Counted from the stretch's first letter, positions 27,527-51,871 are shown. The stretch is 64,000 nucleotides of DNA from an uncultured Actinomycetes bacterium (GCA_963775735.1 CAVZKD010000007.1:214675-278674); one strand, 5' to 3'. The notes: generated by a model not told the origin, from the letters alone. Numbers and translations: made by a program.

Positions 27527-29079
27527 CTAGATCGCGACGCCGCCGGACAGGTCGTCGAAGCTCGACAGCTCGCGGAGCGCCCCCTCGACCCGGTCGGCTT
27601 CGAACGGCAGCTCCTCGACGTCCTCGATCAGGTCGACCGCCGTGACCTCCGACTCGTTCGAGGAGGCGCCGGGAAGGAAGACCCGGAACGAAGCACCGCC
27701 GCCCTCGCGCTCCTCGACCCATGCCCGGCCGCCATGCAACTCGGCCAGACGGGAGAGGAGCGGGAGGCCGGAGGCCCGTGCCCGCTGCGACCGAGCGCCG
27801 GCTGCTTCCCGGTCGCTCGGCATCGCCGGCAGCGCATCGGCGCTGGTGTCGTCGACCGCGATGACCGCCCCGTCCGCTTCGGGGACGACCGTGATCCAGA
27901 TCTTCCCCCCGGCGCGGTCCGGCGACCGGCGTTGGACAGGAGCGTCTCGACCATCTGCTCGGTGAGGCCGGGGTCGACCTCGATCGCCACGTGCTCGCCG
28001 GCGATCTTCAGGTCGCGGTTCGCGATGTCGGGCGTCTCCTCGGCGACGCGACCGACGAGCGCCGCCAGGTCGGACCGGCGTCGCTTGGGCTCGTACGTGC
28101 CGTTCGCGATCTTGTCGAGGTCGAGCATCTGCTCGACGAGCCGCTCCAGGCGCTTCGCGTTCGTCCCCAGCTGGCGCACCATGTGCTTGCCGTCGTTCGC
28201 CTTCACGTCCGCCTGCTTCAGGGCGAGCGTGAGCCCGAGGATCGAGGTCAGCGGCCGGCGGATCTCCGCCGCGACCGCCGCCTGCAGCTCGTCACGCTCG
28301 CCGACCAGCGTGACCTGCGGGGTCGTCTCGGCAGAGCGCCAGCGGTCCTCGAGATCGCCGAGGGCGAGCTCCATCGCCGTGGTTCGGTCGGAGACCCGCT
28401 CGAAACGGTCTTCGGCCAGCCGGGCGCGCTCGTCGGAGAGCCGCGCCTGCTCGTCGGCCAACCGAGCGCGTTCGTCGGACTCGGCCTGTGCGGCGCGTGC
28501 CGCGGCGACCAACCCGGTGAGCTCCTCGATCTCCCCTCGGACGCCGGCGAACCGCTGGTCCGCGGCGTGTGCGCGCTCGTTGGACTCGGACTGTGCGGCG
28601 CGTGCCGCGGCGACCAACCCGGTGAGCTCCTCGATCTCCCCTCGGACGCCGGCGAACCGCTGGTCCGCGGCGCGTGCGCGTTCGTCCGCGTCGCCCTGCG
28701 CCGCGCGGGCGACCCGGACCATGTCCGTCAGCTGTTCGATCTCGCCCTGCAAGGTCGTGAGCCGCTGCTCCGCGGCGCGTGCGCGTTCGTCCCCGTCGGC
28801 CTGCGCCGCGCGGGCGATCGTGAGCAGGTCGGTGAGCTCGGCGACCTCGGTCTGCGTGCCCGCGAGCCGCTGTTCTGCGACGCGGCGGCGCGCGTCCGCG
28901 TCTCGAGCCAGCTCCTCGGCGGCGCGGAGCAGTCCAACCGCCTGCTCGAGTCCGTCGACCGCCTGCGCGACCTGGTACCCGGCGGCCGAGACGCGGCTGA
29001 TGAGGCCGCCGTCCTCGGTCGCCCGGTCGCCCGGTTCGCTCGCTTCGCGGCCCTGCATCATCGCGATCGTGTCGGCCAT
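27527..29079 (-). CDS. coiled-coil protein with C-terminal histidine-kinase-like (HisKA/HATPase_c) domain lacking the phospho-acceptor His; one frame break
   Basis: ORF 27628..29079 contains 4 x 35-aa repeats, then AAEIRRPLTSILGLT (H-box position is Ala) and LLSNA (N-box). The HATPase continuation GKIWITVVPEADGAVIAVDDTS ... LLSRLAELHGGRAWVEEREGGGASFRVFLP lies in the frame of ORF 27527..27823. The frames join near 27920-27935. Confidence 0.7.
28486..28905. repeat. in-frame 105-bp tandem repeat (4 copies, 35 aa each) inside the coiled-coil gene
   Basis: Copies at 28486 and 28591 are identical over their first ~83 nt. Two further diverged copies follow. Encoded units: ERA(R/H)AADQRFAGVRGEIEELTGLVAAARAAQ(S/A)ES(N/D). 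Confidence 0.8.
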
Positions 29080-29119
29080 CGTTTGCTCACCACGCTTCCT
29101 CTGGTTCGTTCATCGACCG

Positions 29120-30352
29120 CTACCGGTCCACCACGATCGGCGGCGTGTCCTGGTCCTCCATCTCGGGGTCGACATGCCCGGCTTCCCGGAGCGCTTCCGT
29201 CAGGCTCGACATGTGGAGGCGGGTCGTCGTGTCGTCGAGCTCCGTCTCGATCCGCTTCATCTCGCTCGCCATCTGTGAGGCGCGTTCCTCCGCGCCCTCG
29301 AGGCGCTGTCGCAGCTCGCTCATCCCCGCGGGCGCGGTCTGCGAGGATCGCAGGCCAGCTCGCGCCTCCTCGAGCTCCTGCTCACGCAGGTGCAGCCGCT
29401 CGCGCAGCGCCGTGTTCTCCATCTCGATCAGGTTCAGCCGCTCGCTCGACTCGCGGAACTGGTCCCGCAACGCCTCGCAATCCTGTTGGCCGGTGCCCAG
29501 GATCGTGAGCTCCTCCTCGAGCAGGGCGACCTGGGCGAGCGCGTCCTTCAGCTGCGTGCGCACGCCCCGGAGGTCCTGCTCGCTGGCCCGGGCGCGGCTC
29601 TCGGCCGTCCGACGCAGCTCGTCGATCTCGCGGAACCCGGGCTGCTGGTTCAGCGGAGCGTCCGCCGCCACGACCGCCGGCGCCGGGGTTCCGTCCGCCC
29701 CGGACGGGACGGACACGGGCGCGTACACATGGACCGGCAGGTTGGAGGGCTGCGCGGGCTGCGCGAGGCTCGTCACGACGATCATCACGACGGCTCCGAG
29801 CAGGAGCACCCCGCAGATCAACGCGATCGTGGTCCATCCCGCCGCCGCCGCCGATGTGATCGGTGCGAGCGCCTGCGACATCTCCGCGACCGCCACCGTG
29901 CCGTCGGGGGAGATCCAGATCGGGACGAACGTCTGGAGCATGGAGCCGCGCGCGTGCGTCTGCGCCTCGCCGTTCGCGACCTCGAAGGTCAGCTCACGAA
30001 GGTAGGACGGTCGCGTCCCGACGATCGTCGGGTCGTCCGCGTACAGGATCCGTCCGATCGCGGAGAAGATCCGGACCTCGTCGATCCGGCTGACGGACGT
30101 GATCTGCGCGTCGATGAGGGCGGTGAGTTCGTCGGCGCGTTCGTTGAAGATCGGGGTTTCCAGGTCGCGCGGCTCGAGCAACGTGGCGAGCTCCGTCTGT
30201 GCGGTGAGCTTCGCGTCGATCTCCGCCTCGGCGATCGCGGCGTCCTTCGCCTTCGAGGCGCTGTACATCGAGACGGCGATCGCGACGACCAGCAGGAAGG
30301 CAAGGGCCCCCCAGAGGGGTCGGCGATGCCGTCTGGCTAGGGAGCCCACCAT
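29120..30352 (-). CDS. bitopic/2-TM membrane protein: extracytoplasmic sensor-like domain plus cytoplasmic coiled coil
   Basis: TM1 LWGALAFLLVVAIAVSMY, a segment of ~130 aa, TM2 WTTIALICGVLLLGAVVMIVV, then a heptad-rich E/R/L/A C-terminal half. Divergent from nurA. Confidence 0.7.
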   Translation of the reverse strand: MVGSLARRHRRPLWGALAFLLVVAIAVSMYSASKAKDAAIAEAEIDAKLTAQTELATLLEPRDLETPIFNERADELTALIDAQITSVSRIDEVRIFSAIGRILYADDPTIVGTRPSYLRELTFEVANGEAQTHARGSMLQTFVPIWISPDGTVAVAEMSQALAPITSAAAAGWTTIALICGVLLLGAVVMIVVTSLAQPAQPSNLPVHVYAPVSVPSGADGTPAPAVVAADAPLNQQPGFREIDELRRTAESRARASEQDLRGVRTQLKDALAQVALLEEELTILGTGQQDCEALRDQFRESSERLNLIEMENTALRERLHLREQELEEARAGLRSSQTAPAGMSELRQRLEGAEERASQMASEMKRIETELDDTTTRLHMSSLTEALREAGHVDPEMEDQDTPPIVVDR

Positions 30353-30443
30353 CTCGTTCCTCTCTCACGACACCGCGGGCTTGGTGCGTCAGGGGTCGTA
30401 TCGGCAGGTCAGCGGCCTACGTGGAGTCCCCCGAAGGGGTGAT

Positions 30444-30459
30444 TAGTCACGAATGACTA
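30444..30459. promoter_or_regulatory. inverted repeat TAGTCA-N4-TGACTA in the divergent promoter region upstream of nurA
   Basis: Seen at 30444-30459, about 50 nt upstream of the nurA GTG (30508). It is AT-rich against the GC-rich background. No known operator consensus recognised. Confidence 0.3.
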
Positions 30460-30507
30460 CTCGGCCACACGGAGGGGCGTGTCGCCGGACCCAGGGAGGA
30501 AGGCGGC

Positions 30508-31611
30508 GTGCCTCCTGGCCCTGTCCGAAGCCTCCGCTACGCTTCGGCCGTGCTCGGAAGCGCGAACCCAGGCGTGCTCAACCTCGACATCGTCGAGCGT
30601 GGGCAGCTCGACGAGGCCGCGTCCTTCGTCGTAGACCTGCTCGAGCGCCCGGGCTCGGACATCCGGGTGATGGAGGGCCAGGCGTCCCTCGACGAGGCGC
30701 TCGTGGTCCAGGGCCACCCCGACGCGTTCGAGCTGACCCCGGTGGAGCCCGCCGATCCCGGCCGGGTCTGGGCGGTCGACGGCGGGTCGTGCGTGGTCGC
30801 CGACGGTCGTTCGTTCCAGGTGGCGGCGTACCGGGCCGCGCGCGTGCGGTTCGAGGCCGGCGTCACCGAACGGGTGGAGACGCCGCCGCTCTCGGTCCGC
30901 GCGCTCCCCCCCGAGGAGATGGCCGAGCTCGCTCGCTCCGTCCTGCGCGAGCTGTGCGGCACGGAGCCCGAGCGGTTGCCCGAGATGCCACGGCCCGTCG
31001 ACGCGCTCCGGGAGTGGGGCGAGTGGGCCGAGGTCGCTCGGACGGTCCGTGACGCCGCCCCGGGCGATCTGGTCCTGGTGGACGGTTCGCTCCACGGCGG
31101 GCCGCTCGTTCCCGCCCTGGTGGTTCGGCGCGTCCACGCGGAGGCCGTCGAACGCGGCGTGTCGCTCGCCGGTGTCGTGAAGGCCTCCACGCTCTACTGG
31201 GGTCGCAACGCGCCGCTCGTCACGTTGCTGAAACGCCGGGGCGACCGCGAACGGGGTGCGACGGCATGGAGTGCCCGGATCTCGACCGATCCGGTGTTCG
31301 CGCGGCTGTACGTCGGGGACATCTTCGTCGCGCACCTGGCGCCGACCGCTCCGTTCGCGTTCCGCGTCGACGTCGCGCACGGGCCCGCCCCGGCGAGCGA
31401 GGTGCTCGGTCGCCTCGCCGGGCTCGCCGACGATCCCGCGTTCGTCGGGTACCCGTACCCCCTCGCGCGGGCCCACCAGGCGGCGAGGGTCACCGGCTAC
31501 GACGTGGTGGACGTTCGCCGCTCCTTCCGCGAGGCGCTCTCTCGGCGGGGCATGTCGGAAGACGACATCGAGGTGCTGTTCCAGGACTTCCACGAGGTCC
31601 TGAACCGGTGA
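30508..31611 (+). CDS. nurA: NurA-family 5'-3' nuclease
   Basis: GTG 30508 with GGGAGGAAGG upstream. Motifs VWAVDGGS, LVLVDGSLHGG and GYPYPLARAHQ match the NurA catalytic D/D/H blocks. Confidence 0.8.
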   Translation: MPPGPVRSLRYASAVLGSANPGVLNLDIVERGQLDEAASFVVDLLERPGSDIRVMEGQASLDEALVVQGHPDAFELTPVEPADPGRVWAVDGGSCVVADGRSFQVAAYRAARVRFEAGVTERVETPPLSVRALPPEEMAELARSVLRELCGTEPERLPEMPRPVDALREWGEWAEVARTVRDAAPGDLVLVDGSLHGGPLVPALVVRRVHAEAVERGVSLAGVVKASTLYWGRNAPLVTLLKRRGDRERGATAWSARISTDPVFARLYVGDIFVAHLAPTAPFAFRVDVAHGPAPASEVLGRLAGLADDPAFVGYPYPLARAHQAARVTGYDVVDVRRSFREALSRRGMSEDDIEVLFQDFHEVLNR

Positions 31612-33173
31612 GCGCGTACAAGGGCCGGATCTTCGGCCGCAGCGTCCTGGAGGCGACCTTCCGCTCCTTCTACGGGACGGACCTGTTCCTCGGTGAGCTG
31701 CTGGTCGGCGAGGACGCCGAACGCGCGCGACGGTTCCTGTTCCGCGTGATCCAGGTGGCGTACGGTTCCGAGTCCTCCGATCCGGGATGGCCCGAGCGCA
31801 CGGCCGGCGCGTACATGGCCGGCGACGCCGCCGGCTCTCCGTACACGCTGCACGACCCGGAGCAGCGCCTCTACAAGGTGGCGACGTGCCAGCCGCTGGG
31901 CTACATCGACGCGGCGGGAGAGTTCCGCAAGCCGAAGTCGCTGCCCGCGCAGTTCGCCCGGGTCACGGCGCCGACGCCGCAGGACTTCGCCTTCCTCCAC
32001 GAACGGATGGGCGACCTGCGGATCGGACTGCTCCGCTCGGGCGAAGATACGATCGATCTCGAGGTCGGCATCAAGGGCGAGACGCTCACGTCGCACGTCG
32101 GGGTCTTCGCCACGACCGGGATGGGCAAGTCGAACCTCATGAAGGTGCTCGCCGGCCAGATCCTTTCCTCCCAGGGCCGGTACGCGTGCCTGTTGTTCGA
32201 CCCGCACGGCGAGTATCTCGAAGGTGGGAGCGGGACCCGCCGCGGTCTGCGCGAACACCCATGGGCCGCCGACCGCCTGCGCGTCTACGCGACCCGAGCC
32301 GCCGGCGCCGGGGCCACCGCGCTGCGCCTCTCGCTCGGCGAGCTCACGCTGGGCGACCTGCAAACGGCGTACGTGTGGAGCCACCCGCAGGAAGAGGCGA
32401 TCTACCGCTTGATCCGCTTCTTCCACGAGGAGTGGATCGTTCGTGTGGGCGAGGAACAGGACGTGAGCGACCTCGCCGAGCAGCTGGGCGTCGCGACGAG
32501 CACCCTCCAGGTGATCCAGCGTCGCGCACAGCGGATCTTGGACATGCCGTGCATCTCACGCGATCCCTCCCAGCCGTCGCTGTCCGAGCGCATCGTCGAC
32601 GAGTTGATGGACGGCTACTCGGTGCTCGTCGACACGAGCGGTCTCTCGTCCATGGAGGAGATCCTCGTCGCGTCGGTCATCACCCGGCGCGTGCTCGACG
32701 CGTATGGCTCGGTCTTCCTGGACGACCGCGAGCGGTTCGCCGCCCTGCCACCGACGCTGATCGCGCTGGAGGAGGCCCAACGGGTGCTCTCGCGCGCGAC
32801 GCGCTCTGACGAGAACGTCTTCCCCCGGGTGGCGCGGGAGGGGCGCAAGTTCAAGGTGGGGCTGTGCGCCGTCAGCCAGCAGCCGAAGTTGATCGACGAC
32901 GAGCTGCTGTCGCAGTTCAACACGTTCTTCATCCTCGGGCTCGCCGACGAGAAGGACCGCACGATCCTGCGCGGGAGCTCGAAGCAGGACATCTCCGACC
33001 TCGGCCCCGAGATCCAGACCCTCATGCCGGGCGAGGCGATCGTGACGAATCTGGATTCGCCGTTCGCCCTGCCGGCGATGGTCTATCTGTACGAGGAGTA
33101 TCTGAAGTCGGTGCAGGGTCCCTCGCCGTTGCCGCCGCGGCCGGCGGGCGGAGCGCAGGGGTTCGCGGAGTGA
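31608..33173 (+). CDS. herA: HerA-type (DUF87) hexameric ATPase/translocase
   Basis: GTG 31608 overlaps the nurA stop (GTGA). Walker A GVFATTGMGKSN, FDPHGEY and LIALEEAQRVL (HerA/FtsK-like Walker B region). Confidence 0.85.
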   Translation: MSAYKGRIFGRSVLEATFRSFYGTDLFLGELLVGEDAERARRFLFRVIQVAYGSESSDPGWPERTAGAYMAGDAAGSPYTLHDPEQRLYKVATCQPLGYIDAAGEFRKPKSLPAQFARVTAPTPQDFAFLHERMGDLRIGLLRSGEDTIDLEVGIKGETLTSHVGVFATTGMGKSNLMKVLAGQILSSQGRYACLLFDPHGEYLEGGSGTRRGLREHPWAADRLRVYATRAAGAGATALRLSLGELTLGDLQTAYVWSHPQEEAIYRLIRFFHEEWIVRVGEEQDVSDLAEQLGVATSTLQVIQRRAQRILDMPCISRDPSQPSLSERIVDELMDGYSVLVDTSGLSSMEEILVASVITRRVLDAYGSVFLDDRERFAALPPTLIALEEAQRVLSRATRSDENVFPRVAREGRKFKVGLCAVSQQPKLIDDELLSQFNTFFILGLADEKDRTILRGSSKQDISDLGPEIQTLMPGEAIVTNLDSPFALPAMVYLYEEYLKSVQGPSPLPPRPAGGAQGFAE

Positions 33174-33195
33174 CGCGAGGCACGCGCACGCGCCG

Positions 33196-34326
33196 ATGAG
33201 CAAGCTCGTCGCGCTCGGGGACGCGCACCTCGGGCGAACGCACCTCGCGCACCTGCGTGACGACGAGGGCCGGAACCTCCGAGAGGAGGACTTCCTCCGG
33301 TCGTTCGCCTGGGCGGTGGACGAGACGATCCGGCAGGAACCCGACGGCTTCCTGTGGCTCGGGGATATCTTCGATCACGCGAGGCCGACCTACCGGACCT
33401 TCGCGCACGTGCTCGGCGGGCTCCAACGTCTCACCGACGCCGGCCTGCGAGGCGCCGCGATCAGCGGGAACCACGACACGCCCCGCGTCCGCGGGACCGG
33501 CTCGCCGTACGACGCGCTGGAGCGCGTGTTCCCCGGGGTCGCGTTCGCCTGGCGCATGGAGGCGATGGCCACCGAACTGGCCGGGGTCGCGGTTCACGCC
33601 GTTCCGCAGACCCTGTCGGTCGAGGAGCTTCGCGAGCAGCTCGCGGCCGCGGCCGCCGCGGTCCGGCCCGACCTCACGAACCTGTTGCTCGCGCACGTCG
33701 CGCTCACCTCGCTGCCGGCTCGGATCTACCCGGACATCAACGAGCTCGAGGTCGAGGAGGCGGCGTTCCACACGGGGTTCGACCTCGTCGTGCTCGGCCA
33801 CTACCACGCGCAACAGAAGGTCTCGAAGCGCACGTGGTACGCGGGCTCGACCGACACGTTCTCGTACGCGGACACGCCCGAGGCGGCGAAGGGGCTCGTC
33901 GTGATCGACACCGACGCGGGCACGGTCGAGCACGTGGAGAACCCGCACGAACGTCCGCTCGCCACCGTGAGCGTCGCGGCCGCCGGGCTGTCGGCCGGCG
34001 AGCTCGTCGACGCGGTCGAGCGCGCGGCGCGAGGGATCCCCGAACGCGCGATCGTGCGGGTCTACCTGAACGAGGTGGACCCGGCGTCGTTCCGGCAGGT
34101 CGCGGTCGAGCAGTTCCACGAGGCCGTCCCGAGCGCGATCTGGGTCCAGGTCGAGCCGGACTTCGGTGCCGAGGCGCTCGCGATCCAGGGCGGTCCCACG
34201 ATCGGTTCGCTCGAGCGGGAGTGGACGTCGTACGTCGAGCTGCAGGATCTCGCGGGGCTCGAACGCGAGCGGGTCGTGTCGATCGGCGCCGGGTTCCTGT
34301 CCGACGCGCGCGGGGAGACCGTTTGA
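33196..34326 (+). CDS. mre11: Mre11/SbcD-family nuclease
   Basis: Calcineurin-like phosphoesterase motifs GDAHLG, GDIFDH, GNHD, LLAHV and LGHYH, all in order. Confidence 0.9.
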   Translation: MSKLVALGDAHLGRTHLAHLRDDEGRNLREEDFLRSFAWAVDETIRQEPDGFLWLGDIFDHARPTYRTFAHVLGGLQRLTDAGLRGAAISGNHDTPRVRGTGSPYDALERVFPGVAFAWRMEAMATELAGVAVHAVPQTLSVEELREQLAAAAAAVRPDLTNLLLAHVALTSLPARIYPDINELEVEEAAFHTGFDLVVLGHYHAQQKVSKRTWYAGSTDTFSYADTPEAAKGLVVIDTDAGTVEHVENPHERPLATVSVAAAGLSAGELVDAVERAARGIPERAIVRVYLNEVDPASFRQVAVEQFHEAVPSAIWVQVEPDFGAEALAIQGGPTIGSLEREWTSYVELQDLAGLERERVVSIGAGFLSDARGETV

Positions 34327-36602
34327 GGGTCCTCGAGCTGTCGCTGCGCAACTACCGAGTGTTCGAGGAGCTCGACCTCGAGCTGCCGGCTCGGGTGATC
34401 GGGATCTTCGGCGAGAACGGCAGCGGCAAGTCCACCCTCGTGGAGTCGATCGCGTTCGCGTGCTACGGGGCCGAGGCCGCGCGGACCAAACGACAGGAGA
34501 TCCGCACCCACGGCGTCCTGGCCGACTGCCTGGTGCGTCTCGTGTTCGAGCACGCCGGACAGCAGTTCGAGGTCCGGCGTGCCATCAAGGGGAGGGGGCA
34601 TGCGCCGGAGGCCGAGCTCTTCGTCGGGGCCCGCCCGTTCGCGTCGGGGACGACCGAGGTGAACGAGGAGGTCGCCAGGATCCTCCACATGGACCTGCGC
34701 GTGTTCCGAGCTTCCGTGTACGCGGAGCAGAAGCAGCTCGACGCGTTCTCGGACCTGCGGCGCGGCGAACGTGTCGAGATGGCGTTGCGCCTGCTCGGCA
34801 TCAAGCCGGTCGACGACGCGCGCACCGCCGCCCGCCGGCAGGCCCGCGCGTCGAAGGAGAACGCCGCGCAGCTCCAGGGCGCGGTGCCGGACCTGGCCGC
34901 GCTCGAGGCGGAACTGAAGGACGCCGGGGAAGCCGCGGCGGAGGCGAAACGCGTCGTGAAGGACGCGCAGGAGGCGCGGAAGGCGACGACGAAGCAGGCC
35001 AAGGCGGCCACGGATGCGTTCCGCCGGATCGACCAGGCGCGAGAACGCATCGAGCGGCTCGGCGCGCTCCTGACCGAGAAGGTCGAGCGCCGTGACGAGC
35101 GGCAGGCCGAGCGCGACGAGCTCGGGGAGCGGCTCGAGCGGCTCGCGGTCGAGCTCGAAGCGCTGCCGGAGCTCGAGGCCAAGCTCGCCGGGCTCGGCGA
35201 CGCGGACGAGCGCCTGCGGCTCGGCATGCGTTTCGTCGAGGGGTCCGACAAGGTCCATGCGGTGGAGTTGCAGCTGACCGCGCTCCCCGAGGTCGACGCC
35301 AAGGCCGCGCTCGACGCGCTCGGGCAGGCGCAGGCGTCGCACGCGCAGTCACAGGCCGCGGCGGCGGGCGCGCAGGCCGAGCTCAGGCAACGTGCCTCGG
35401 CGCTCGAGGAGTCACAGGCGCGACTCGACCGGGCCGCCGAAGCCGACCCGACCCAACCGTGTCCGACGTGCGGCCGGCCGCTCGAGGACTTCGCCGCGTA
35501 CGTGAAGCATTGCAAGACCGAGCTCGCGAGCGCGAAACGGACGGCCGCCGACGCGTCTGCCTCCGTCAAACGCGCCGAGACGGCGCTGGCGAAGGTTGCC
35601 AAGGCGCTCGGCGCGGCGGTGTCGGCAGCCGAAGACGCTCGGCGCGCCGGCGAGCAGCGCACGCGGCTGACGGAACAGCTCGACGCGATGCGCGCCGAGC
35701 TCGCGCCGCTCGCCCAGCCGTTCGAGGGGGCCCCGCCCGACGTCGACGAGCTCCGCGCCGGAGCCGAGCGGGCCCGGGTCCTCGGAGGGCGGATCGCGGA
35801 GCTGGGCGCGCAGCGGGGCTTCGCTGCGCAGCTCCGCACCGACCTGTCCGCTGCCGACGCTCGGATCGCGGTGCTCGAGGACGAGCTTGCGAAGCTGACG
35901 GACGAGGCGAGCGCGATCTCGTTCGATCCGGCCGAACACGCACGCTCGACCGAGGACCTGCAACGCGCGGAGCAGGCGGTGGAGGAGGCCGTCGAGGCCG
36001 AACGCTCGGCGGGCGACGAGCTGCAACGCGCAGAGCTCACGCGGAGCGAGCTCGCCGGGGCGCTCGGACAGGCCAGGGAGATCGCGTCGCGCGTCGATGA
36101 CCTCCGCTCCGACGCCCGGTACGTCGAACGGGTGGCGATGCTCCTGGACGGCTTCCGCGATCATCTCGTCGCGCGCGTCGGTCCCGAGCTCTCCCGGGAG
36201 GCCGAGGCGTTGTTCCGTGAGCTCACGAACCACGAGTACGACGACCTGCGGGTGGACGAGGAGAGCCTCGAGATCCGGATCGCGGACGGCGACGCGTACT
36301 TCCCGATCGACCGGTTCTCCGGTTCGGAAAGCGACCTGGCGAACCTCGCGCTCCGCGTCGCCATCTCCACGCACCTGTCGCGAGTGTCCGGTGCCGACGT
36401 CGGGTTGATGGTGCTCGACGAGGTGCTCGGTTCGCTCGACGAGGAGCGCAAGGACCTGATGGTCCGGGCGCTCGGGATGCTGGCGGGTCGGTTCCACCAG
36501 TTGTTCGTGATCACCCACGCGGAGCGCATCAAGGACCAGTTCCCCGCCTCGATCGTCGTGCAGAAGACCGGACGGCGCCGAAGCACCGCCGTGATGGTCT
36601 AG
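34323..36602 (+). CDS. rad50: Rad50/SbcC-family ATPase with zinc hook
   Basis: TTG 34323 overlaps the mre11 stop (TTGA). Walker A GENGSGKST. Central CPTC zinc hook (35460-35471) within a long coiled coil. Signature SGSESDLANLAL. Walker B LMVLDEVLGSLD. H-loop ITHA. Confidence 0.9.
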   Translation: MRVLELSLRNYRVFEELDLELPARVIGIFGENGSGKSTLVESIAFACYGAEAARTKRQEIRTHGVLADCLVRLVFEHAGQQFEVRRAIKGRGHAPEAELFVGARPFASGTTEVNEEVARILHMDLRVFRASVYAEQKQLDAFSDLRRGERVEMALRLLGIKPVDDARTAARRQARASKENAAQLQGAVPDLAALEAELKDAGEAAAEAKRVVKDAQEARKATTKQAKAATDAFRRIDQARERIERLGALLTEKVERRDERQAERDELGERLERLAVELEALPELEAKLAGLGDADERLRLGMRFVEGSDKVHAVELQLTALPEVDAKAALDALGQAQASHAQSQAAAAGAQAELRQRASALEESQARLDRAAEADPTQPCPTCGRPLEDFAAYVKHCKTELASAKRTAADASASVKRAETALAKVAKALGAAVSAAEDARRAGEQRTRLTEQLDAMRAELAPLAQPFEGAPPDVDELRAGAERARVLGGRIAELGAQRGFAAQLRTDLSAADARIAVLEDELAKLTDEASAISFDPAEHARSTEDLQRAEQAVEEAVEAERSAGDELQRAELTRSELAGALGQAREIASRVDDLRSDARYVERVAMLLDGFRDHLVARVGPELSREAEALFRELTNHEYDDLRVDEESLEIRIADGDAYFPIDRFSGSESDLANLALRVAISTHLSRVSGADVGLMVLDEVLGSLDEERKDLMVRALGMLAGRFHQLFVITHAERIKDQFPASIVVQKTGRRRSTAVMV

Positions 36603-38116
36603 GCGGTCGCTTCGGCGCGATCCGCCGGCTCGGTATCGCCATCCGGCTCCGGCGGCGCCGGGATCGCCGGATCGGAGCCGTCGGCTGCACCCTGCGAGAC
36701 GGTTCCTGCGTCCAGCCCGCCCACGGGCGCCCAGACGCTCGGGAGGAAGACGCGCGCGACCCCGCGGCCCCCCGGCAGCTCCTCCGCCGACGTCCACCCG
36801 CCGTGCAGCTTGGCGAGGAAGGTCGCCGCGGGTCCGACCTCGACACCCGAGGCCGCGCCTCCCTCGACCGCGATCATCACGCCGTCGTCGGTCCGTTCCA
36901 CGCGGAGGACGACGCGATCGCTGCGCGGCGTCCGCGTCATCGCGGAGGACAGGAGGTCGTCCACGAGCCGTTCGAGCCGCGCCGGATCGATCTGGATCGT
37001 CGCGGTCTCGGCGATCACCTCGACCTGGCGCCCGTCCGTCACCGGGAACTCCCGCACGACGCGGCGGATGAGCGTGTCGATCTCGGTGCTGCGCCGCTTG
37101 AGGACGACCTCCCCTCGGGACAGGCGCTCGGCGTCGAGGATGTCGGTGAGGGCGTGCTCCATCCGGCGAGCCTGCGACATGAGCTGTTGGAGCATCCGCC
37201 CCTCATCGGGTGCTCCCTGCGAGGACATCATCCGTGCGAGCCCGAAGATGGCCGAGAGCGAGCGTTTCGCGTCCGTCGACATGGCGTCGACGACCCCCTG
37301 TACGCCGTCGCCGTCCAGGCCCATGTCCCCGGCCGACACCGAGTTCGTCGCGACCTGTTCGAGCTCGCTCTGGAAGCGGGCCAGCGTTTCCTGCGTCTCG
37401 AGGAGCCGGCTGCGGGCCGCCATGGCCTCCTCCGCCGCCTTCCGAGCGACGTCGTCGGCGTGCTCCTGCAGCATGTCCTGTCGCCGGGCGAGCTCCTCCG
37501 CGCGAGCGCGCTCAGATCCGGCTTCCCACTCCGAGCTCTGGAGGTGCTCGATGAGTCGATCCTTCTCCTGCAGCAGCTCCAGGCTCTCGGCTCGGAGGCG
37601 TTCGACGCTCGTTCGCGCGCTCTCGGACTCGACGCGAAGCCCATCCGCCTCCGCCCGCTGGAGATCCAGTTCGGCTCGCAGGTTGTCCAGCTCGACGCGG
37701 CCGGCCTCGTGCTCGGCGCGGAGCCGCTCTGCCTCCCCGCGCCCGGCCTCGAACTCGGTGCCGAGTCGTTCCTCCTCGACCCGCCGCGCGTCGAGTTCGG
37801 CGCGGAGCCGCTCCACCTCCCCGCGTCCGGCCTCGAGCTCGGTCCGGAGCCGCTCCACTTCACCGCGCCCGGTCTCGAACTCGGCGCCCAGTCGCTCTTC
37901 CTCGACCCGACGCGCGTCGAGTTCGGCGCGGAGCCGTTCCACCTCGACCCGCCCGCTCTCGAGCTCGGCGGCGAGTCGCGCCTCCTCCAACCCTCGCGCT
38001 TCGAGCTCGGCCGCGAGTCGCGCTTCCTCCACACTCCTCGACTCGAGCTCGGCGGCGAGCCGCGCTTCCTCCAACCCTCGTGCGTCGAGCTCGGCAGCGA
38101 GTCGCGCCTCCTCCAC
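36599..38116 (-). CDS. coiled-coil protein with C-terminal histidine-kinase-like domain lacking the phospho-acceptor His (probably the C-terminal part of the 38283..41469 gene)
   Basis: Repeat-built coil, then TDAKRSLSAIFGLARMM (H-box position is Asp), then LVDDLLSSAM ... DGVMIAVEGG ... FLAKLHGGWTS (degenerate HATPase_c). The reading frame stays open upstream to at least 38340 with coil-like sequence but no start codon. Confidence 0.7.
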   Translation of the reverse strand: MEEARLAAELDARGLEEARLAAELESRSVEEARLAAELEARGLEEARLAAELESGRVEVERLRAELDARRVEEERLGAEFETGRGEVERLRTELEAGRGEVERLRAELDARRVEEERLGTEFEAGRGEAERLRAEHEAGRVELDNLRAELDLQRAEADGLRVESESARTSVERLRAESLELLQEKDRLIEHLQSSEWEAGSERARAEELARRQDMLQEHADDVARKAAEEAMAARSRLLETQETLARFQSELEQVATNSVSAGDMGLDGDGVQGVVDAMSTDAKRSLSAIFGLARMMSSQGAPDEGRMLQQLMSQARRMEHALTDILDAERLSRGEVVLKRRSTEIDTLIRRVVREFPVTDGRQVEVIAETATIQIDPARLERLVDDLLSSAMTRTPRSDRVVLRVERTDDGVMIAVEGGAASGVEVGPAATFLAKLHGGWTSAEELPGGRGVARVFLPSVWAPVGGLDAGTVSQGAADGSDPAIPAPPEPDGDTEPADRAEATA

Positions 38117-38167
38117 CTTCCTCGACTCGAGCTCGGCGCGCAGTCTCTTGTCCTCGCGTCGACGTGC
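37700..38167. repeat. nested in-frame tandem repeats (42/84-bp units 37958-38125; 126-bp units from ~37745)
   Basis: 42-bp units start at 37958, 38000, 38042 and 38084 and encode (V/L)EEARLAAELE(A/S)R(G/S). 126-bp copies at 37745 and 37871 encode GR.EVERLRAELDARRVEEERLG.EFE.GRGE.ERLR. Confidence 0.75.
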
Positions 38168-38282
38168 CTCGGCCTCCTCGGCCGTGGTTCGCAGCTCCGC
38201 TGCGAGTGTGCGCTGATCGGCCTCGGTCCTTCCGGCCAGGGCACGGGTGTTCTCGAGGTCGTCCTTCGTCCGCTCGAGTTCG

Positions 38283-41200
38283 TCAGATACTGCCGCCAGC
38301 TCGATCCGACCCGCTCGAGCTCCGCCCGGTCGCTCGCGAGCGCGGCGTTGGCAGCCTCGAGCTCTGCCCGGTCGTCGCGAGCGCGGCGTTGGCAGCCTCG
38401 AGCTCTGCCCGGTCTGTCGCGAGCGCGGCGTTGGCAGCCTCGAGCTCTGCCCGGTCGCTCGCCAGCGCGGCGTTGACAGCGTCGAGCTCCGCCGCGAGGC
38501 CCTCGTTCTTCTGCCGGCGCGATTCGGCCTTCTCTCGCGCCGACCGGAGCTTGTCGTGGAGCGCTCGCTCGTTGGCTTCGGTCTCGCCGACGGCGGCTCG
38601 CATCGCTTCGAGATCGCCCCTCACCGTCTCGATCTCGGCGCGTGCTGCGTGGAGATCCCCGTTCACGACATCCGCGTCGACTCGTGTCGCCTCGAGCTCG
38701 GTCTTCGCTGACTCGGCTTCGGCCCGCGCCGCTTCGAGGTCGGACCTGAACGTCCCGGCTTGGGCCCGCGTCGCCTCGAGCTCGTCCCTCGCGACCTGGG
38801 CTTCGGCACGTGTCGCCTCGAGATCCCCCTGCACCGCTTCGACCTCGGCTCGTGCCACCTCGAGGTCGGTCTTGAAGGTCTCGGCTTCTCCCTGGACCGC
38901 AACGATGTCGCGCCGAGCAGCTTCGAGCTCGGTCGTCGCCGCCTCCAGTCGAGCCGTGAGCGCCCGTCGTTCGTTCTTCGCCGACTCGAGGTCCGTGCTG
39001 AGGTCGGGCCGGGCCTCGAGCTCCTCGATCCGCTGTCTGCCCGATCCGATCTCCGCGCGGGCCGCCTCGAGTTCGGCCGTCAGGTCGGGCCGGGCCTCGA
39101 GCTCCTCGATCCGCTGTCTGCCCGATCCGATCTCCGCGCGGGCCGCCTCGAGCTCGGCCATCAGGTCCGGCCGGGCCTCGAGCTCCTCGATCCGCCGCGC
39201 GCGTGCCTCGACCTCGGCGCGGGCCGCCTCGAGCTCGGCCGTCAGGTCCGGCCGGGCCTCGAGCTCCTCGATCCGCCGTGCGCGCGCCTCGACCTCGGCG
39301 CGGGCCGCCTCGAGATCGGTGCTCACCACTTCCGCGTCGCGTCGGGCGACGAGGATCTCCGCCCGTGCCGCGGAAAGTTCGGACGACGCCGTCTCCATGC
39401 GAGCCACGAGCGCGTTCCGCTCATCCTGGGCAGATTCGAGGGCCGTCGTCAGGTCCGGCCGGGCCTCGAGTTCGGCGATCACGCCGGCGAGCTCGGCCGT
39501 CTCCTGCGTGAGCTCCGCGATCTCGGCTTCCGCTCGATCCGCGCGGGTGCGTTGCTCGTTCAGTCGATCCGCGACCTCGGCCCCGGCGAGCTGTGCCACC
39601 TCCATCTCCGAGCGTGTGGACCCGACCTCCCGCTCCAAGGCCTCCGCTCGCTCGTTCGCGGCCGAGAGCGAGGTCCGAAGTGAGGCGGCCTCGGAGATGG
39701 CCGCTTCCATCTCGGCGCTGAGATCCGGCCGTTGCTCGAGCGACTGCACCTGACGGAAGAGGTCGACCACCTTCGCCTCGGCGGCACCGGCTCGCTCCTG
39801 CTGCTCGCGGAGCTGTTCGGCGGTCTCGTCGACCTGGCGTTGGAGCGATGAGGATCGGTCGGTCACATCTGAGAGTTGCGCACTCTTCGCCTGTTCGGCC
39901 AGCCTGGCTGCCGCGATCTCGGTGGCGGCTCGATCCGCGTCCGCCCTGGCCCGCTCGACCTCCGCCCTGGACCGCTCCGCCTCGGCCTTGGCATCCTCGA
40001 CGCGAACGCTCATCTCCGCCTCTCGGGCTCGGGCGTCCTCGAGTTCGCTCCGCGCCGCGGCGAGCTCGGTACCACCCTCCTCGAGCTCGCGCCGTGCCGT
40101 GGCCAGTTGCGACTTGGAGGTCTCGAGCGCGTGTTCGAGCTGCTGCTGCGCGCGCTGCAACTCCTCACGCATGGCGGCGGCTTCACCCTCGGCCGAGCCA
40201 CGCGCCTGCTCGAGCGACTCGCGTTCCGCGACGAGCGCCTGGCGTTCCCCGGCGAGCGCGCTGCGCTCCGCCGCGAGCGTCTCGCGTTCGGCCTCGAGCG
40301 TCCGGTTGGTCGCCTCGAGGGTCGCGACGCGGTCCGCGAGTTCGCGCTTCGCGTCCCGCGTGACCGCCGCCTGGCGTTTGGCCTCCACCAGCGAGTTGCG
40401 GAGCTGCTTGAACTCCTCGTCCTTGCCCGACCCGGCCCGCTCGAGATCGTCACCGAGCGCGGCAAGATCCTCGGCCCACTCCTCGGCCTGCCTCGCTCTC
40501 GCGTTGGCCTCCGCGGTCTGCCGTTCGGCGTCCCGAGCGCGCGACTCGGCCGCCGTGATCCTGGCTCGCGCCTCGCTCTCGCCCTTCTCGGCGTGGTCGG
40601 CGCGCGCCTGCGATTCGGCGATGCGTGAGGTGGCATCGCCGAGCTTCCCCTCCGCCTCGGCGGCACGCGCCTCCGTCTTGCTGACGGCCTCGTCGAGCTC
40701 CCGCAACACCTTCTTGTGTGCCGTCAGGTCCTCGGCGACCTTCTCGAGCTCCGTGCGGACGCCGGCCTCGTCGGCCTTCGCCCGCTCGATCGTCTTCTCC
40801 AGGCCCGCCATCTCCTTCTCGTGCCGGCGTTCGATGTCGAGCACCCGCGAGGGACTGATGGCGTCGCCGAACCCGGCGGCCCGCGACCCGTTCTGGGCGA
40901 ACGCGTACACGAGCACGAGCAGCGCGAGGATGCCCGCGGCGATCGTGACGACGATCCATGGTCCTCGAGCGGCCTCGATCGCATCGGACGGACCGGCGAC
41001 GTCGACGACGGCGATGTCGGACGGCCCGCCGACGGTGACGGGGACGAAGACGCTGAACGTCCCGGCGCCCAGCTCCGTCTGCGTCCCGGCCGACAGGACG
41101 CGGGCGACCTTGGCCCGCGACTCCTTCAGTCCCATGGCCTCCCGGTCCTGAGCGAAGACCACGACGGCCTCGCTGTTGAGGACGGTGACGGAGTCGTCCG

Positions 41201-41469
41201 GACCGACGAGCCCCGCGTCCACGACGGAGGAGAGCGACTGGTAGCGCTCGCCGCTCACCGGGCCGGCGAGGTCCTCGGGGATGAGCGCATCCCCGACCGC
41301 CGCCGCGGCGCGCTCGGCCGAGGCGCGTGGCCTCGGCCTCGAGGGCATGGCTCGCCTTGCCCGCCTGCTGGAACGCGCCGAAGGCCGCCGCGGCCAGCAC
41401 GAATGCGAGCGCGATGAGCGCCATACGCTGGGCGCCGCGGGGAACGCTCAAGCCACTTCCCGCCTTCAT
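38283..41469 (-). CDS. giant membrane-anchored coiled-coil protein (sensor-like N-terminus), frame break near the 5' end and at the 3' end
   Basis: ORF 38283..41348 (1021 aa) has an extracytoplasmic-like segment, then a TM helix WIVVTIAAGILALLVLVYAF, then ~850 aa of A/E/R/L coil. The likely true N-terminus, MKAGSGLSVPRGAQRMALIALAFVLAAAAFGAF (ATG 41469, TM1), is in another frame and joins near 41320-41345. Same architecture as 29120..30352. Confidence 0.7.
38314..38480. repeat. 42-bp in-frame tandem repeat x4, one unit only 41 bp
   Basis: Units are 38314-38355, 38356-38396 (41 bp), 38397-38438 and 38439-38480. They encode A(A/V)NAALA(S/T)DRAELE. The short unit coincides with the loss of frame of the giant ORF. 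Confidence 0.85.
39001..39324. repeat. 81-bp in-frame tandem repeat x4 (27 aa)
   Basis: Copies start at 39001, 39082, 39163 and 39244. Copies 1 and 2 differ at 2 nt. Copies 3 and 4 are also near-identical but carry a different central block. Encoded units: ARAE(VEARAR/IGSGRQ)RIEELEARPDL.AELEA. Confidence 0.85.
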
Positions 41470-41587
41470 CTCGAACGATCGGATGCTGGGACCGTTCGAT
41501 GTATCGGCGTGTGGGTGGGGCGACGTAAGCCGTTCGGCGCACGGAGTTGGCGACCGGTCCGGCCGGGCCGGGCCCGGTCTCTGCGGC

Positions 41588-42394
41588 CTAGCGGGCGGGC
41601 TCGACCTCGGCGGAGACCTCCGCCCACGCCTGGCCGTCCCACTCGAGCACGGTGGTCCGATACGCGGTCGGGCAGCAATGCGGGTCGCCCGGCTCGAAGA
41701 CGGCCTCTCGGATCTCGAGGGCCCCGTCGACGGCCGAGACCTCCGTGTCGCAGCCGTCGCGGCGGTAGATCTCCGCCGCGCCGCCGGCGACCGAGGTGAT
41801 CACCCGCCAGGTGGCGCAGGCCCCGCTCCCGCCCCGCTGCTCCTCGGTGAGCAGGTCGTCGACGCCGTCCCCGGTGAGGTCGGCGGGAACGACGCTGATG
41901 CCGAGGACGCCCGCGTTCGGACGGTCGGTGAACGCGTAGACGGCTCGCCAGCCGGCGTCGTCGCCCTGATCGAAACGCTGCCACACGACGAGCCCGATCT
42001 CGGGGGCGAACGGGTCGGAGCCGCGCCGCCACGCAACGGCGATCTGGTCGATCGGATCGTCGGGGGTCGTCTGGCGGATCGCGATCGTGTCCTCGGCCCC
42101 GGACGGGATGAGCACCGAGTGATCCCCGGCCTCGATCAGCACGACGTCGGCGGAGTCGCCGACCGAGCTTGGCGCGTCGGTCGGCAGTTGGAGATCCGGC
42201 TCCGGTTCCTCGCCCGGGCTCGTGGTGGCGCTCCCGGTCGGTGGTCCGGTGGGTGACGCGCTCCCGGTGTTCGATCCCGACGACGTTGGTCCGCTCTCGG
42301 TCGGTCCCGTCCCATCGCCGTCCGAGGTGCACGCGGCGAGCGAGACGATCGCGACGACCGCGATGCGGGTGACGGAGGTGAGCGGGCGGCGCAT
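41588..42394 (-). CDS. hypothetical lipoprotein
   Basis: Lipobox SLAAC, low-complexity S/T/G/P linker, then a globular domain with an FG-GAP/VCBS-like ADLTGDGVDDLL segment. No confident family. Confidence 0.55.
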   Translation of the reverse strand: MRRPLTSVTRIAVVAIVSLAACTSDGDGTGPTESGPTSSGSNTGSASPTGPPTGSATTSPGEEPEPDLQLPTDAPSSVGDSADVVLIEAGDHSVLIPSGAEDTIAIRQTTPDDPIDQIAVAWRRGSDPFAPEIGLVVWQRFDQGDDAGWRAVYAFTDRPNAGVLGISVVPADLTGDGVDDLLTEEQRGGSGACATWRVITSVAGGAAEIYRRDGCDTEVSAVDGALEIREAVFEPGDPHCCPTAYRTTVLEWDGQAWAEVSAEVEPAR

Positions 42395-46212: not shown

Positions 46213-46227
46213 CTCCGACTGATGAGA

Positions 46228-46259
46228 GAAGGAACGGGGCCAGATGGCCCCGTTCCTTC
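46228..46259 (-). terminator. stem-loop after the 46271..46918 gene (14-bp perfect stem, 4-nt loop)
   Basis: GAAGGAACGGGGCC-AGAT-GGCCCCGTTCCTTC at 46228-46259, 12 nt downstream of the stop. The trailing U-tract on the minus strand is weak (TCTCTCATC). Confidence 0.5.
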
Positions 46260-46270
46260 GATCGGTCCGG

Positions 46271-46918: not shown

Positions 46919-47061
46919 GACATCCCCCTTTCGTCTCAGGGCAGCATCCGCCCCTCGACGGCCCTCGGTAGGGGCCGACCGGCCCACGTGCGCGGGGACC
47001 TTCGGCCCGGTGCCCGCACCCGAGGGGCGGCCAGGATGCGCCCATCCCAACCAAGGAGGGT

Positions 47062-48781: not shown

Positions 48782-49456
48782 TCAGCCCTGGGTGCCCGGG
48801 GTGGTCGTGTGGCGGGCGAGGTAGGCCGCGGCCTCGGCCCGCCGCGCCACCTCGAGCTTCGACAGGATGCTCGAGACGTAGTTCTTGACGGTCTTCTCCG
48901 CGAGTCCGAGCTCGTCGCCGATCTCTCGGTTCGTGTCCCCGTCCGCCACGAGCGAGAGGATCCGCTCCTCCTGCGGTGACAGTCGGGCGAGCTTCTCGTC
49001 CTTCAACAGATGTTTGCCCTTCCGGAGGCGATCGAGGACCGCGTTCGTCACCGCCGGGTCGAGCAGGCTCTCGCCCTTGCCAACGGTGCGGATCGCTCGC
49101 ACGAGTTCGCCGCCTCGCACCTGCTTGAGCACGTAGCCGGACGCGCCGGCCATGATCGACGCGAAGAGCGCCTCGTCGTCGGCGAACGAGGTCAACATCA
49201 CGACCCGGATGTTCGGGTGGTTCGCTCGGATCTCGCGCGTCGCTTCGATGCCGCTCCCGTCGGCCAGCCGCACGTCCATGACCACCACATCCGGCCGGGC
49301 CCGGTCCGCCTCGTCGACGGCTTCCCGGACCGTCCCGGCCTCGGCTGTGACCACGATGTCGTCGGTGGCCTGCAGGAGGGCCTTCACGCCGCCGCGGACG
49401 ACCTCGTGATCGTCGACGAGCAGGACGCGCAGCGGCGGCTGATCCGGGGAACCCAT
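48782..49456 (-). CDS. NarL/LuxR-family response regulator
   Basis: REC domain (LLVDDHEVVR ... VVMDVRLADGSG) plus LuxR HTH (LSPQEERILSLVADGDTNREIGDELGLAEKTVKNYVSSIL). Confidence 0.9.
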   Translation of the reverse strand: MGSPDQPPLRVLLVDDHEVVRGGVKALLQATDDIVVTAEAGTVREAVDEADRARPDVVVMDVRLADGSGIEATREIRANHPNIRVVMLTSFADDEALFASIMAGASGYVLKQVRGGELVRAIRTVGKGESLLDPAVTNAVLDRLRKGKHLLKDEKLARLSPQEERILSLVADGDTNREIGDELGLAEKTVKNYVSSILSKLEVARRAEAAAYLARHTTTPGTQG

Positions 49457-49470
49457 CGGCTCCTGGAATC

Positions 49471-51867: not shown

Positions 51868-51871
51868 GCGG

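Follow-up and report, generated by a model that had tools for sequence, protein, structure and literature searches.

The stretch of DNA analysed here, hereafter the window, comprises 64,000 nucleotides (64 kb; G+C content, 71%) from an uncultured Actinomycetes bacterium (GCA_963775735.1, CAVZKD010000007.1:214675-278674). Its plus strand carries nurA, herA, mre11 and rad50, collectively termed the cassette, and its minus strand the genes of coiled-coil proteins with histidine-kinase (HK)-like ends, for which letters are used throughout: C (the sensor half) and A (the head half), which are divergent from nurA, and B (a fused paralogue), which converges on rad50. The minus strand also harbours the lipoprotein gene c7, and fused types found elsewhere are denoted B2. 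A preceding reading of this DNA, made by a model without database searches (the sequence-only reading), had taken the mirrored placement of these modules around the cassette to suggest a functional unit, for example a membrane-tethered scaffold or sensor coupled to DNA-end processing, or a defence-type module. The genes concerned are listed below by position in the window, with protein lengths in amino acids (aa), transmembrane helices as TM, and the dimerisation/histidine-phosphotransfer and catalytic ATP-binding domains of histidine kinases as DHp and CA.

A, 27527..29079, minus strand: 517 aa when corrected; conserved N-terminal helix, repeat-built coil, HisKA (Ala for His), HATPase_c, acidic tail and LRELSxFDDLS C-terminus.
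C, 29120..30352, minus strand: 410 aa, intact; TM1, single predicted PDC/sCache-type domain, TM2, Pro/Ala linker, coil of ~160 aa and acidic tail.
nurA, 30550..31611, plus strand: probable true start at GTG 30550 (leaderless) and not at GTG 30508; Pfam NurA, 38.2 bits.
herA, 31608..33173, plus strand: DUF87, 83.2 bits; 86-90% identical across the clade within cassette version 1.
mre11, 33196..34326, plus strand: Metallophos, 38.4 bits.
rad50, 34323..36602, plus strand: TTG start overlapping the mre11 stop; AAA_23 (67.3 bits) and SMC_N; CPTC zinc-hook motif; stop overlapping that of B.
B, 36599..41469, minus strand: ~1,626 aa when corrected; TM, sensor, TM, Ala/Glu/Arg/Leu coil of ~1,150 aa, DHp-like segment (Thr for His) and degenerate CA head.
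c7, 41588..42394, minus strand: predicted lipoprotein with signal peptide, lipobox-like LAAC, Ser/Gly/Pro/Thr linker and a domain of ~190 aa with a CCP motif.

The stop codons of rad50 and B share the tetranucleotide CTAG at 36599-36602, as had been noticed before. Neither A nor B occupies a single open frame: the frame of A shifts once, within a G run near 27907, and that of B three times, near 41325, 38374 and 38306, one of these sites falling inside a 42-bp repeat array. Both were analysed as frame-corrected proteins, with a relative of 96% DNA identity (L008) as the reference for the comparison of frameshifts. Three of the four sites are 1-nt deletions in the window relative to L008, in which A is intact; the remaining one, near 41325, lies beyond the extent of L008. 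Between the two assemblies, 1-nt indels occur about once per 400 bp and in both directions, and they also affect nurA, herA and mre11 of L008; many relatives, moreover, are long-read metagenome-assembled genomes (MAGs). Since indels are present in both assemblies, A is intact in L008 and the relatives include long-read MAGs, the frameshifts in A and B were treated as assembly errors, which is most likely what they are, rather than as signs of pseudogenisation. In addition, mapping of open reading frames (ORFs) by G+C content at third codon positions showed several pairs of ORFs on one strand that adjoin or overlap each other in different frames, for example at 12627-14117, 16085-18237, 18238-19732 and 45700-47137. 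The assembly appears to carry many such errors, which makes arguments from ORF integrity unsafe in this window.

The kinase-like ends were compared with domain and structure databases. The head of A matched Pfam HisKA (PF00512) with 36.5 bits (cut-off, 26.9) and HATPase_c with 44.8 bits, so the order of coil and HisKA/HATPase end that had been read from the sequence stands for this gene, its single open frame excepted, for which one correction was needed that the sequence-only reading did not mention. For B, the same architecture at a length of ~1,626 aa was likewise recovered; the open frame was not (three corrections), and its kinase end gave only a sub-threshold HisKA match (16.8 bits, E 0.007) and no HATPase_c match in Pfam. 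Homology was found between the C-terminal ends of A and B (31% identity, E 1e-24), and also between C and the N-terminus of B, with its TM, ~130-aa domain and TM (26% identity, E 2e-9), which bears out the proposed paralogy of the flanking modules. The position of the H-box histidine is occupied by Ala in A and Thr in B, in agreement with the loss reported before, and by A/T/S/G in 15 A-type heads and T/L/V in six B-type heads, never by His in either. Among 16 fused-type heads from the representative search it is L/I/M/T, with His in two. At +4, where the phosphatase motif has Thr or Asn, A-type and B-type heads alike have Arg or Lys. The DHp segment reads AVA(A/T/S/G)(E/D)(V/I/L)RRPLTSI in the A type and A(L/M)S(T/L/V)DAKRSLSAIFGL in the B type. 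The CA domain of A keeps the N-box Asn, with a weakened G1 (DDTSAD in the window, DDTGxE in relatives) and a G2 of the form GxxGL; in the B type, the N-box Asn is replaced by Ser, and the ATP lid and G2 are deleted.

For both heads, the best sequence match in the Protein Data Bank was DivL (4Q20; E 1e-12 for A and 4.5e-6 for B), and the Ala of A aligned with the Tyr of DivL and the His of HK853, which fixes the H-box position. Based on the family-wide loss of the acceptor His, the similarity to the HK fold and DivL as the best match, A and B are assigned, from sequence, to the pseudo-histidine kinases. The inference that they are not canonical two-component kinases is thus upheld, given the loss of both acceptor His and phosphatase motif and, in the B type, of N-box Asn and ATP lid. 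The B type is predicted to be without a plausible ATP site, and the A type may still bind nucleotide. Assignment of A to a named HK family was rejected, as NCBIfam returned only matches far below threshold (PhoR, PnpS, CreC and others). Consistent with the lack of an adjacent response regulator remarked upon earlier, none was found within about 7 kb of C, A or B in the window, in which the nearest called gene of this kind encodes a NarL-type protein (48782..49564) beside a HisKA_3 kinase. Nor was one found beside pseudokinase genes in the called-gene tables of more than 100 related loci; receiver-domain genes in two of the loci retrieved through HerA (L103 and L108, see below) are ~8-10 kb away, in loci without a pseudokinase.

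The coils of A and B are rich in Ala, Glu, Arg and Leu and are encoded by DNA-level tandem repeats, so that the composition and origin given for them in the sequence-only reading were confirmed. The arrays are located as follows.

A-coil tandem repeats, 28412..28902: units of 105 bp (3.3 copies, 84% matches) and 21 bp.
B-coil repeat arrays, 37622..39319: units of 42/84/126 bp at 37622..38156, of 42 bp (4.3 copies, 92% matches) at 38314..38493, and of 81 bp (3.9 copies) at 39001..39319.

At the opposite end of these proteins, a conserved C-terminal peptide follows a variable acidic linker, reading LRELSxFDDLS in the A type (about 27527-27600 in the window) and LLVQELHRLSxxD/E in fused proteins (P0174, P0184, P0187 and others). 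This peptide looks like a docking motif.

The layout of C was found to be as first described: the gene is intact, and two hydrophobic segments enclose an extracytoplasmic domain of ~130 aa, with a coil thereafter. An AlphaFold model computed with 28 homologues had a mean predicted local distance difference test (pLDDT) score of 76, with values of 80-92 over residues 20-190, and featured a long N-terminal helix and a five-stranded beta-sheet of PDC fold between the two TM helices. Foldseek searches with the sensor retrieved TlpQ, CitA, KinD, WalK and DcuS, with E values of 6e-5 to 1e-3 and TMt scores of ~0.6 (0.6 for CitA). The structure check that had been proposed for this segment thus returned a single PDC/sCache sensor fold, as judged from the model. 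Pfam Cache models did not match C, which has no family in Pfam or NCBIfam, and neither MCPsignal nor HAMP was detected by Pfam in C, A or B. Next to these sensors, c7 lies directly upstream of B on the same strand. Its C-terminal domain contains the segment ...DPHCCPTAY..., and its Pfam matches are weak (FG-GAP and Lipoprotein_21, LppP/LprE). Of all neighbours of the pseudokinase family, c7 is the most constant, being found beside B, B2 or the cassette in both sets of loci described below, and it may be an extracytoplasmic partner of the sCache domain; the lipoprotein LpqB as partner of MtrB provides a parallel.

Homologues of C formed 128 clusters (350-450 aa), every one of them from uncultured Actinomycetota and without a name that indicates function, with full-length identities of 37-97%. 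An exhaustive HMMER search with the sensor module yielded 200 clusters among 1.84 billion representatives, which sets the size of the family at ~200 clusters counted at 50% identity; its members are labelled 'hypothetical' or, generically, 'histidine kinase'. The proteins found were of the C type (~400 aa), fused B2 proteins of 700-1,270 aa, single chains in which the sensor is joined to an A-type head (P0245, L090), and a few with GGDEF-EAL (P0229, P0239, P0248) or PAS-HisKA_3 outputs. B2 proteins comprise, in order, sensor, TM, giant coil, the segment EDRRAxxPFxKELS(L/I/M/T/H)DAKKS..., a degenerate CA and the C-terminal LLVQELHRLS. In the fused form, the TM helix that precedes the sensor is oriented N-in. 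The C-terminal sequence of C, FHMSKLSEALRE, has its counterpart in ...QMSEALRQIR, which in the fused proteins immediately precedes the head linker; the split point thus falls after a conserved ...MSxLxEALRE motif. Because of this match, the C plus A pair is regarded as the fission product of a fused ancestor, and the fused chains provide Rosetta-stone evidence that C and A work together. Coil length is highly variable (200 to more than 1,100 residues) and grows by tandem repeats, and B-like genes in C-type loci encode from 670 aa to more than 1,386 aa. Literature searches retrieved no described link between NurA/HerA and a histidine kinase and no description of this pseudokinase family, in keeping with the earlier statement that no system of such composition was known. 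The family is an uncharacterised and unannotated new architecture of a known kind of protein, the pseudo-histidine kinase.

Gene order was assessed in two sets of loci. The C-anchored set comprised five contexts from metagenomes and 15 species-representative genomes. A follows C on every contig that extends beyond it, and the cassette is divergent from C in all C-type loci with that flank; only about half of them also have a B-like gene convergent on rad50. A metagenome scan for fused heads gave 80 loci, with a readable upstream neighbour in 27. The cassette is directly upstream in 20 of these: c7, nurA, herA, mre11, rad50 and B2 are co-directional in 15, and in the other five c7 is followed by an inverted cassette and B2 is divergent from nurA. 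The remaining seven have B2 directly after c7, and up to 10 kb of sequence to each side contains no cassette. The distance from rad50 to the start of the fused gene, on the same strand, is ~100-200 nt in type I loci. The conserved synteny on which the sequence-only reading had staked its proposal was accordingly observed, in all C-type loci with the flank and 20/27 of the fused-type loci.

It extends, however, to a collinear block of ~20 kb in both sets, which runs through aconitase, c7, [cassette], pseudokinase, (acyl-CoA dehydrogenase), thiolase, FtsH, alcohol dehydrogenase (ADH) and a PDDEXK nuclease. The whole block being collinear, adjacency is a property of the block and not specific to pseudokinase and cassette. 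The reverse comparison started from HerA of cassette version 1, for which 2,275 matches were obtained, the best 120 all at least 80% identical, and six contexts were examined. Two of them (L103, L106) represent a different neighbourhood without pseudokinase or c7, one (L108) has other flanks and no pseudokinase, and one (L105) has the same block and c7 but no pseudokinase. In L104, the only C-like gene (7668-8627, minus strand) is truncated to 319 aa, with TM, sensor, TM and a short coil, and no A lies by the cassette, a state that suggests ongoing loss of the module in some lineages. The fused B2 of L107 is the sole intact pseudokinase among the six. With seven cassette-less fused loci and five of six HerA contexts without an intact pseudokinase, the gene sets are separable both ways. 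The linkage is ancient and common yet not obligatory, and direct cooperation is considered unlikely. The two-sided bracket of the window is a lineage-specific arrangement that probably combines the extra paralogue B with the split of an ancestral gene into C and A.

Candidate control elements were identified upstream of C, B and nurA:

Promoter of B, 41501..41529, minus strand: putative sigma-28/WhiG-like promoter, CTTA-N17-GCCGATAC, in which GCCGATAC ends 31 nt before the ATG at 41469.
Control element of C, 30398..30460, minus strand: TAGTCATTCgTGACTA...CCCCttcGGGGGACTCC-N17-GCCGATAC, a putative sigma-28/WhiG-like -10 with an upstream palindromic segment.
Promoter of nurA, 30522..30543, plus strand: putative RecA-NDp/PafBC-type promoter, TGTCCGAA-GCCTCCGC-TACGCT (TGTCCGAA-N8-TACGCT), with the GTG of nurA 6 nt further on.

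The WhiG consensus has been reported as T(A/C)AA-N16-GCCGATAA and CTCA-N16-17-GCCGA (PMC12871210; also PMC8325347), and WhiG homologues in other Actinomycetota are predicted to control motility, pili, development and cyclic di-GMP enzymes (PMC12871210). In the window, GCCGATA occurs twice, upstream of C and upstream of B. The upstream motif of C, GGGGACTNC-N17-GCCGATA, was present in 22 of 22 loci (once per locus for the pattern GGGGACTNC-N15-19-CCGATA), and the pattern of the whole control element was found once in the window and once in each of the 22, with 0 expected. The element of B recurs at the B-like genes of L019 (CTCA-N17-GCCGATAA) and L005. At 30-90 nt upstream of their start, the fused genes have TGAA-N16-GCCGATAA or a near match to it, whichever of the three arrangements they are in and even where rad50 lies immediately upstream. 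Overall, the -10 element GCCGATA(C/A) is conserved in all loci, and the -35 element departs from the consensus at one base in most of them (window, CTCC/CTTA-N17; fused genes, TGAA-N16) and is exact in L019 (CTCA-N17). As these alignments show, every family gene examined has its own conserved, promoter-like motif that resembles the sigma-28/WhiG consensus.

Upstream of the -35 of C (30432-30460, minus strand), the segment TAGTCATTCnnGnCnA...CCCC(3-4 nt)GGGGG is conserved in 22 loci. In the window it contains the palindrome TAGTCA-N4-TGACTA without mismatch, and the -35 is overlapped by a further, third half-site (GACTA). The segment could be an operator or activator site. The fused-type loci contain a different yet conserved upstream segment (...GAATGACCAAnAGGAATCCCCCTCT...). 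A structured RNA or riboswitch between C and nurA was rejected because the intergenic region had no Rfam match at E<=1; it reads better as promoter plus operator. A loose scan of the window with the WhiG pattern returned mostly intragenic chance matches and one further intergenic candidate near 5805. This site (5805-5835, plus strand) has CTCA-N17-GCCGA and TCAA-N16-GCCGA with exact -35 and spacing and a -10 of GCCGAGGG, and precedes a gene (5892-7064) for an M23 peptidase with a PcsB-type coiled coil. It may mark a further target of sigma-28 or have arisen by chance.

The cassette is an operon as originally proposed, with four Pfam matches above cut-off on the plus strand, co-directional genes whose starts and stops overlap or are close, and the CPTC hook of Rad50. 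HerA scored 96 and 86 bits with models of double-strand-break (DSB)-repair HerA, against 53 and 47 bits with anti-phage HerA models. A RecA-NDp-like motif precedes nurA in 38 loci (19 C-type, 15 fused-type and four HerA-anchored), with both cassette variants and in both orientations. Its general form is (T/C)GTC(G/C)NNN-N8-TAnnnT, for example cGTCGGTG-N8-TAGTAT, and the start codon follows 6-7 nt later. For comparison, the RecA-NDp consensus of the LexA-independent actinobacterial DNA-damage response is tTGTCRgtg-8nt-TAnnnT (PMC5656591), and in mycobacteria PafBC works through this motif (PMC6789036). Motif and start spacing together imply that nurA-herA-mre11-rad50 would be transcribed as a leaderless, DNA-damage-inducible unit. 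Control by LexA/SOS was rejected, as the intergenic region between C and nurA has no LexA/SOS-box-like site; near-matches elsewhere in the window are mostly within called genes. The cassette is ordinary in function; a RecA-NDp-type promoter motif on such an operon has not been described previously.

A second version of the cassette occupies the slot in six loci (L004, L005, L007, L012, L020 and L022). It consists of a 317-aa borderline NurA, a 560-aa HerA-like ATPase, and SbcD-like and SbcC-like proteins; the HerA-like protein was recognised only by the PADLOC HerA/mad8 models, and the NurA only at a borderline Pfam score. Two, perhaps three, versions that BLAST cannot relate to each other thus alternate at one slot, in either orientation and with a constant promoter type (L024-L081 included). 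Carriers of either version are equally distant from the window, with thiolase and ADH identities of 76-85%, and divergence in situ was therefore rejected as the origin of version 2. That the versions are unrelated by BLAST despite the equal divergence of their housekeeping neighbours indicates that the cassette has been exchanged at a fixed chromosomal slot (putative xenologous replacement), which in turn means that the donors had the same flanks. The cassette proteins are conserved as strongly as their housekeeping neighbours.

Elsewhere in the window, the NarL-type gene at 48782-49564, the sole response regulator among the called genes, belongs to a cluster (48782-53149 on the minus strand, 50476-51867 on the plus strand) that includes a GAF-HisKA_3-HATPase kinase (51872-53149) and, between regulator and kinase, a multicopper oxidase; a CopC/CopD gene lies at 10129-12078. 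These genes make up a separate, ordinary two-component and copper cluster. At 1392-4586 (plus strand), a signalling protein of 1,064 aa combines a zinc ribbon, an adenylate/guanylate cyclase, an AAA_16 ATPase and TPR repeats, with a TetR regulator adjoining (703-1362).

Comparison with characterised systems places the family near, and outside, several groups. DivL of Caulobacter crescentus (4Q20) shares with A and B a HisKA-type DHp and a CA fold with the acceptor His replaced, and its kinase domain is described as an input or binding module rather than a catalyst (PMC4211667). DivL differs, however, in its cytoplasmic PAS domains, in lacking an sCache ectodomain and a giant coil, and in being an alphaproteobacterial cell-cycle protein with the known partners DivK~P and CckA; its match to A and B is of low identity and scores only marginally above that of HK853, which amounts to resemblance, not orthology. 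PsmA (SCO4009 family) of the Streptomyces polarisome is likewise an actinobacterial HisKA-like protein with a variable H-box residue and no D/ExxT/N phosphatase motif, and works by binding a protein, DivIVA, rather than by phosphotransfer (PMC12963549). It is, by contrast, a cytoplasmic hybrid with receiver domains and an intrinsically disordered region, without TM/sCache sensor or long coil, confined to Streptomycetaceae and with no reported link to WhiG-type promoters or a repair operon. Since both differ in domain architecture, their likeness to A and B would be one of functional analogy and not of family membership.

The sCache sensor kinases (CitA, DcuS, WalK and PhoR class) have in common with the family the TM-PDC-TM topology, the Foldseek matches of the ectodomain and the HisKA/HATPase_c homology of A. 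Unlike them, the family has no acceptor His, phosphatase motif or partner response regulator, has a coiled coil of 200-1,150 aa in place of a HAMP/PAS linker, and in the lineage of the window is split into two polypeptides. Its Cache-type ectodomain and long coil also recall chemoreceptors, except that an MCPsignal domain is absent according to Pfam. Its putative promoters resemble those of the sigma-28 (FliA/WhiG) regulon in the GCCGATA(A) -10 and the spacing of 16-17 nt and differ by one base in the -35 of most loci, and the sensor of some relatives is fused to GGDEF-EAL. As to the cassette, it shares with the archaeal-type DSB-resection operon the four families, the translationally coupled order and the Rad50 zinc hook, and differs in being bacterial (Actinomycetota), in having nurA first, in its leaderless RecA-NDp/PafBC-type promoter and in the two mutually unrecognisable variants per slot.

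Taken together, the locus is best explained by a family of stalked pseudo-histidine kinases with a scaffold function that lies beside a separately regulated DNA-damage cassette, the pairing of the two being probably inherited gene order; we assign this reading a probability of roughly 0.6. Under it, C plus A and B would not autophosphorylate and would instead form dimeric, membrane-anchored scaffolds. The sCache domain would sense an extracytoplasmic cue, either a ligand or the c7 lipoprotein, and the ensuing conformational change would pass along a dimeric stalk that transmits or spaces the signal and whose length may be tuned through gain and loss of repeats. The dead DHp/CA head and the conserved tail would bind a cytoplasmic partner. 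Expression of the pseudokinases would follow a sigma-28/WhiG programme, and the cassette would be a separate, leaderless transcription unit with its slot between c7 and the pseudokinase gene.

Several points weigh against this account. The linkage outlasts three arrangements (co-directional, divergent, and split with a convergent copy) as well as the swap to a BLAST-unrelated cassette, a persistence beyond what neutral gene order usually shows, and the reverse test with HerA covers only six contexts. The sigma-28 assignment is one of motif similarity only, with a -35 that is one base off consensus in most loci. The scaffold mechanism draws on analogy with DivL and PsmA, and its partner is hypothetical. 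Finally, the A-type heads keep the N-box Asn and part of G1 and G2, so that ATP binding or non-canonical catalysis is possible.

Among the alternatives, the stalk proteins might be accessory subunits or regulators that tether or gate NurA-HerA-Mre11-Rad50, all forming one functional unit. We consider this unlikely, even though the cassette adjoins them in every C-type locus with the flank and in most fused-type loci, including those in which the fused gene closely follows rad50, whether the arrangement is co-directional, divergent or bracketing, and even though adjacency survives the swap for an unrelated variant at equal genome divergence and the slot between c7 and the pseudokinase is kept through inversion, fission, paralogue gain and xenologous replacement. 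The two gene sets have different, independently conserved promoters, and the fused gene retains its own even directly downstream of rad50; aconitase, thiolase and FtsH are equally syntenic within the 20-kb block; the cassette is missing from seven loci with a pseudokinase, and an intact pseudokinase from five of the six HerA contexts, two of which lie in the same block; and HerA variant 1 (2,275 matches) is far commoner than the C family (128). The functional unit deduced from mirrored placement is thus not borne out, all the more so as B is absent in about half of the close relatives. Somewhat less likely again is that the pseudokinases and c7 couple an envelope or cell-cycle signal, under the WhiG programme, to the PafBC-controlled resection machine. 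One role of such coupling might be to locate or license the resection of DNA ends at the membrane, for example when DNA is taken up, when cells divide or in spore-like differentiation, and coupling of this kind would explain why the cassette has been retained between c7 and the pseudokinase through all these rearrangements.

It is improbable that the A-type head is still an enzyme that binds ATP and phosphorylates a non-canonical residue or a partner such as C, B or a distant response regulator. The head does pass the Pfam thresholds for HATPase_c and HisKA, there is little or no variation across the A type in the N-box Asn, the G1 Asp and the G2 GxxGL, the lid segment is present, and many relatives have a conserved His ~15 residues downstream (LKHAD/LKHTD). 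In both the window and L008, however, Gln takes the place of that His; no A-type head has His at the canonical position; the second Gly of G1 is lost in the window copy (DDTSAD); the homologous B-type and fused heads lack Asn and lid; and no response regulator is linked in more than 100 loci. An anti-phage or anti-plasmid defence island, with HerA, NurA and the SbcCD-like nucleases as effectors and the membrane sensors detecting infection, is very improbable. HerA and Rad50 give generic matches to defence ATPase models (HerA, LmuB, mad3/mad8), and the swapping of unrelated cassette variants at a fixed slot is reminiscent of defence hotspots. Against this, A, C, NurA and Mre11 have no specific PADLOC match, A and C showing only coiled-coil matches to JetC at E~1e-3; HerA favours the DSB-repair models; every cassette has an actinobacterial DNA-damage promoter motif; its proteins are conserved like their housekeeping neighbours; and the flanking genes belong to core metabolism, neither integrases nor mobile elements being among them. 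Identity as a defence system was rejected for want of specific PADLOC matches, and the defence-type module of the sequence-only reading falls with it, neither A nor C matching such a system in this housekeeping context. Least credible of all is that A and B are decaying pseudogenes and the pattern functionless. Four frame disruptions and degenerate kinase motifs in the window copies would fit such decay; the 1-nt deletions relative to L008 at three of these sites, together with the random indels in both assemblies, led to its rejection, and more than 100 clusters contain full-length orthologues whose motifs are conserved, the losses of kinase motifs being ancient and family-wide rather than recent.

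If the preferred reading of a scaffold family beside an independently controlled cassette is true, the locus would be a cautionary case, in which bracketing synteny can reflect a conserved block plus paralogy and not a machine. It would also document, in these bacteria, an archaeal-type nurA-herA-mre11-rad50 operon with a RecA-NDp-type leaderless promoter motif, two unrelated versions of which alternate at one slot. The family itself would be a sizeable, unannotated group of pseudo-histidine kinases (~200 clusters) with a Cache ectodomain, an expandable stalk, a dead head and a lipoprotein companion. It would represent a third type, after DivL and PsmA, of a kinase fold reused as a scaffold, and an apparent member of the poorly known WhiG regulon in early-branching, uncultured Actinomycetota.

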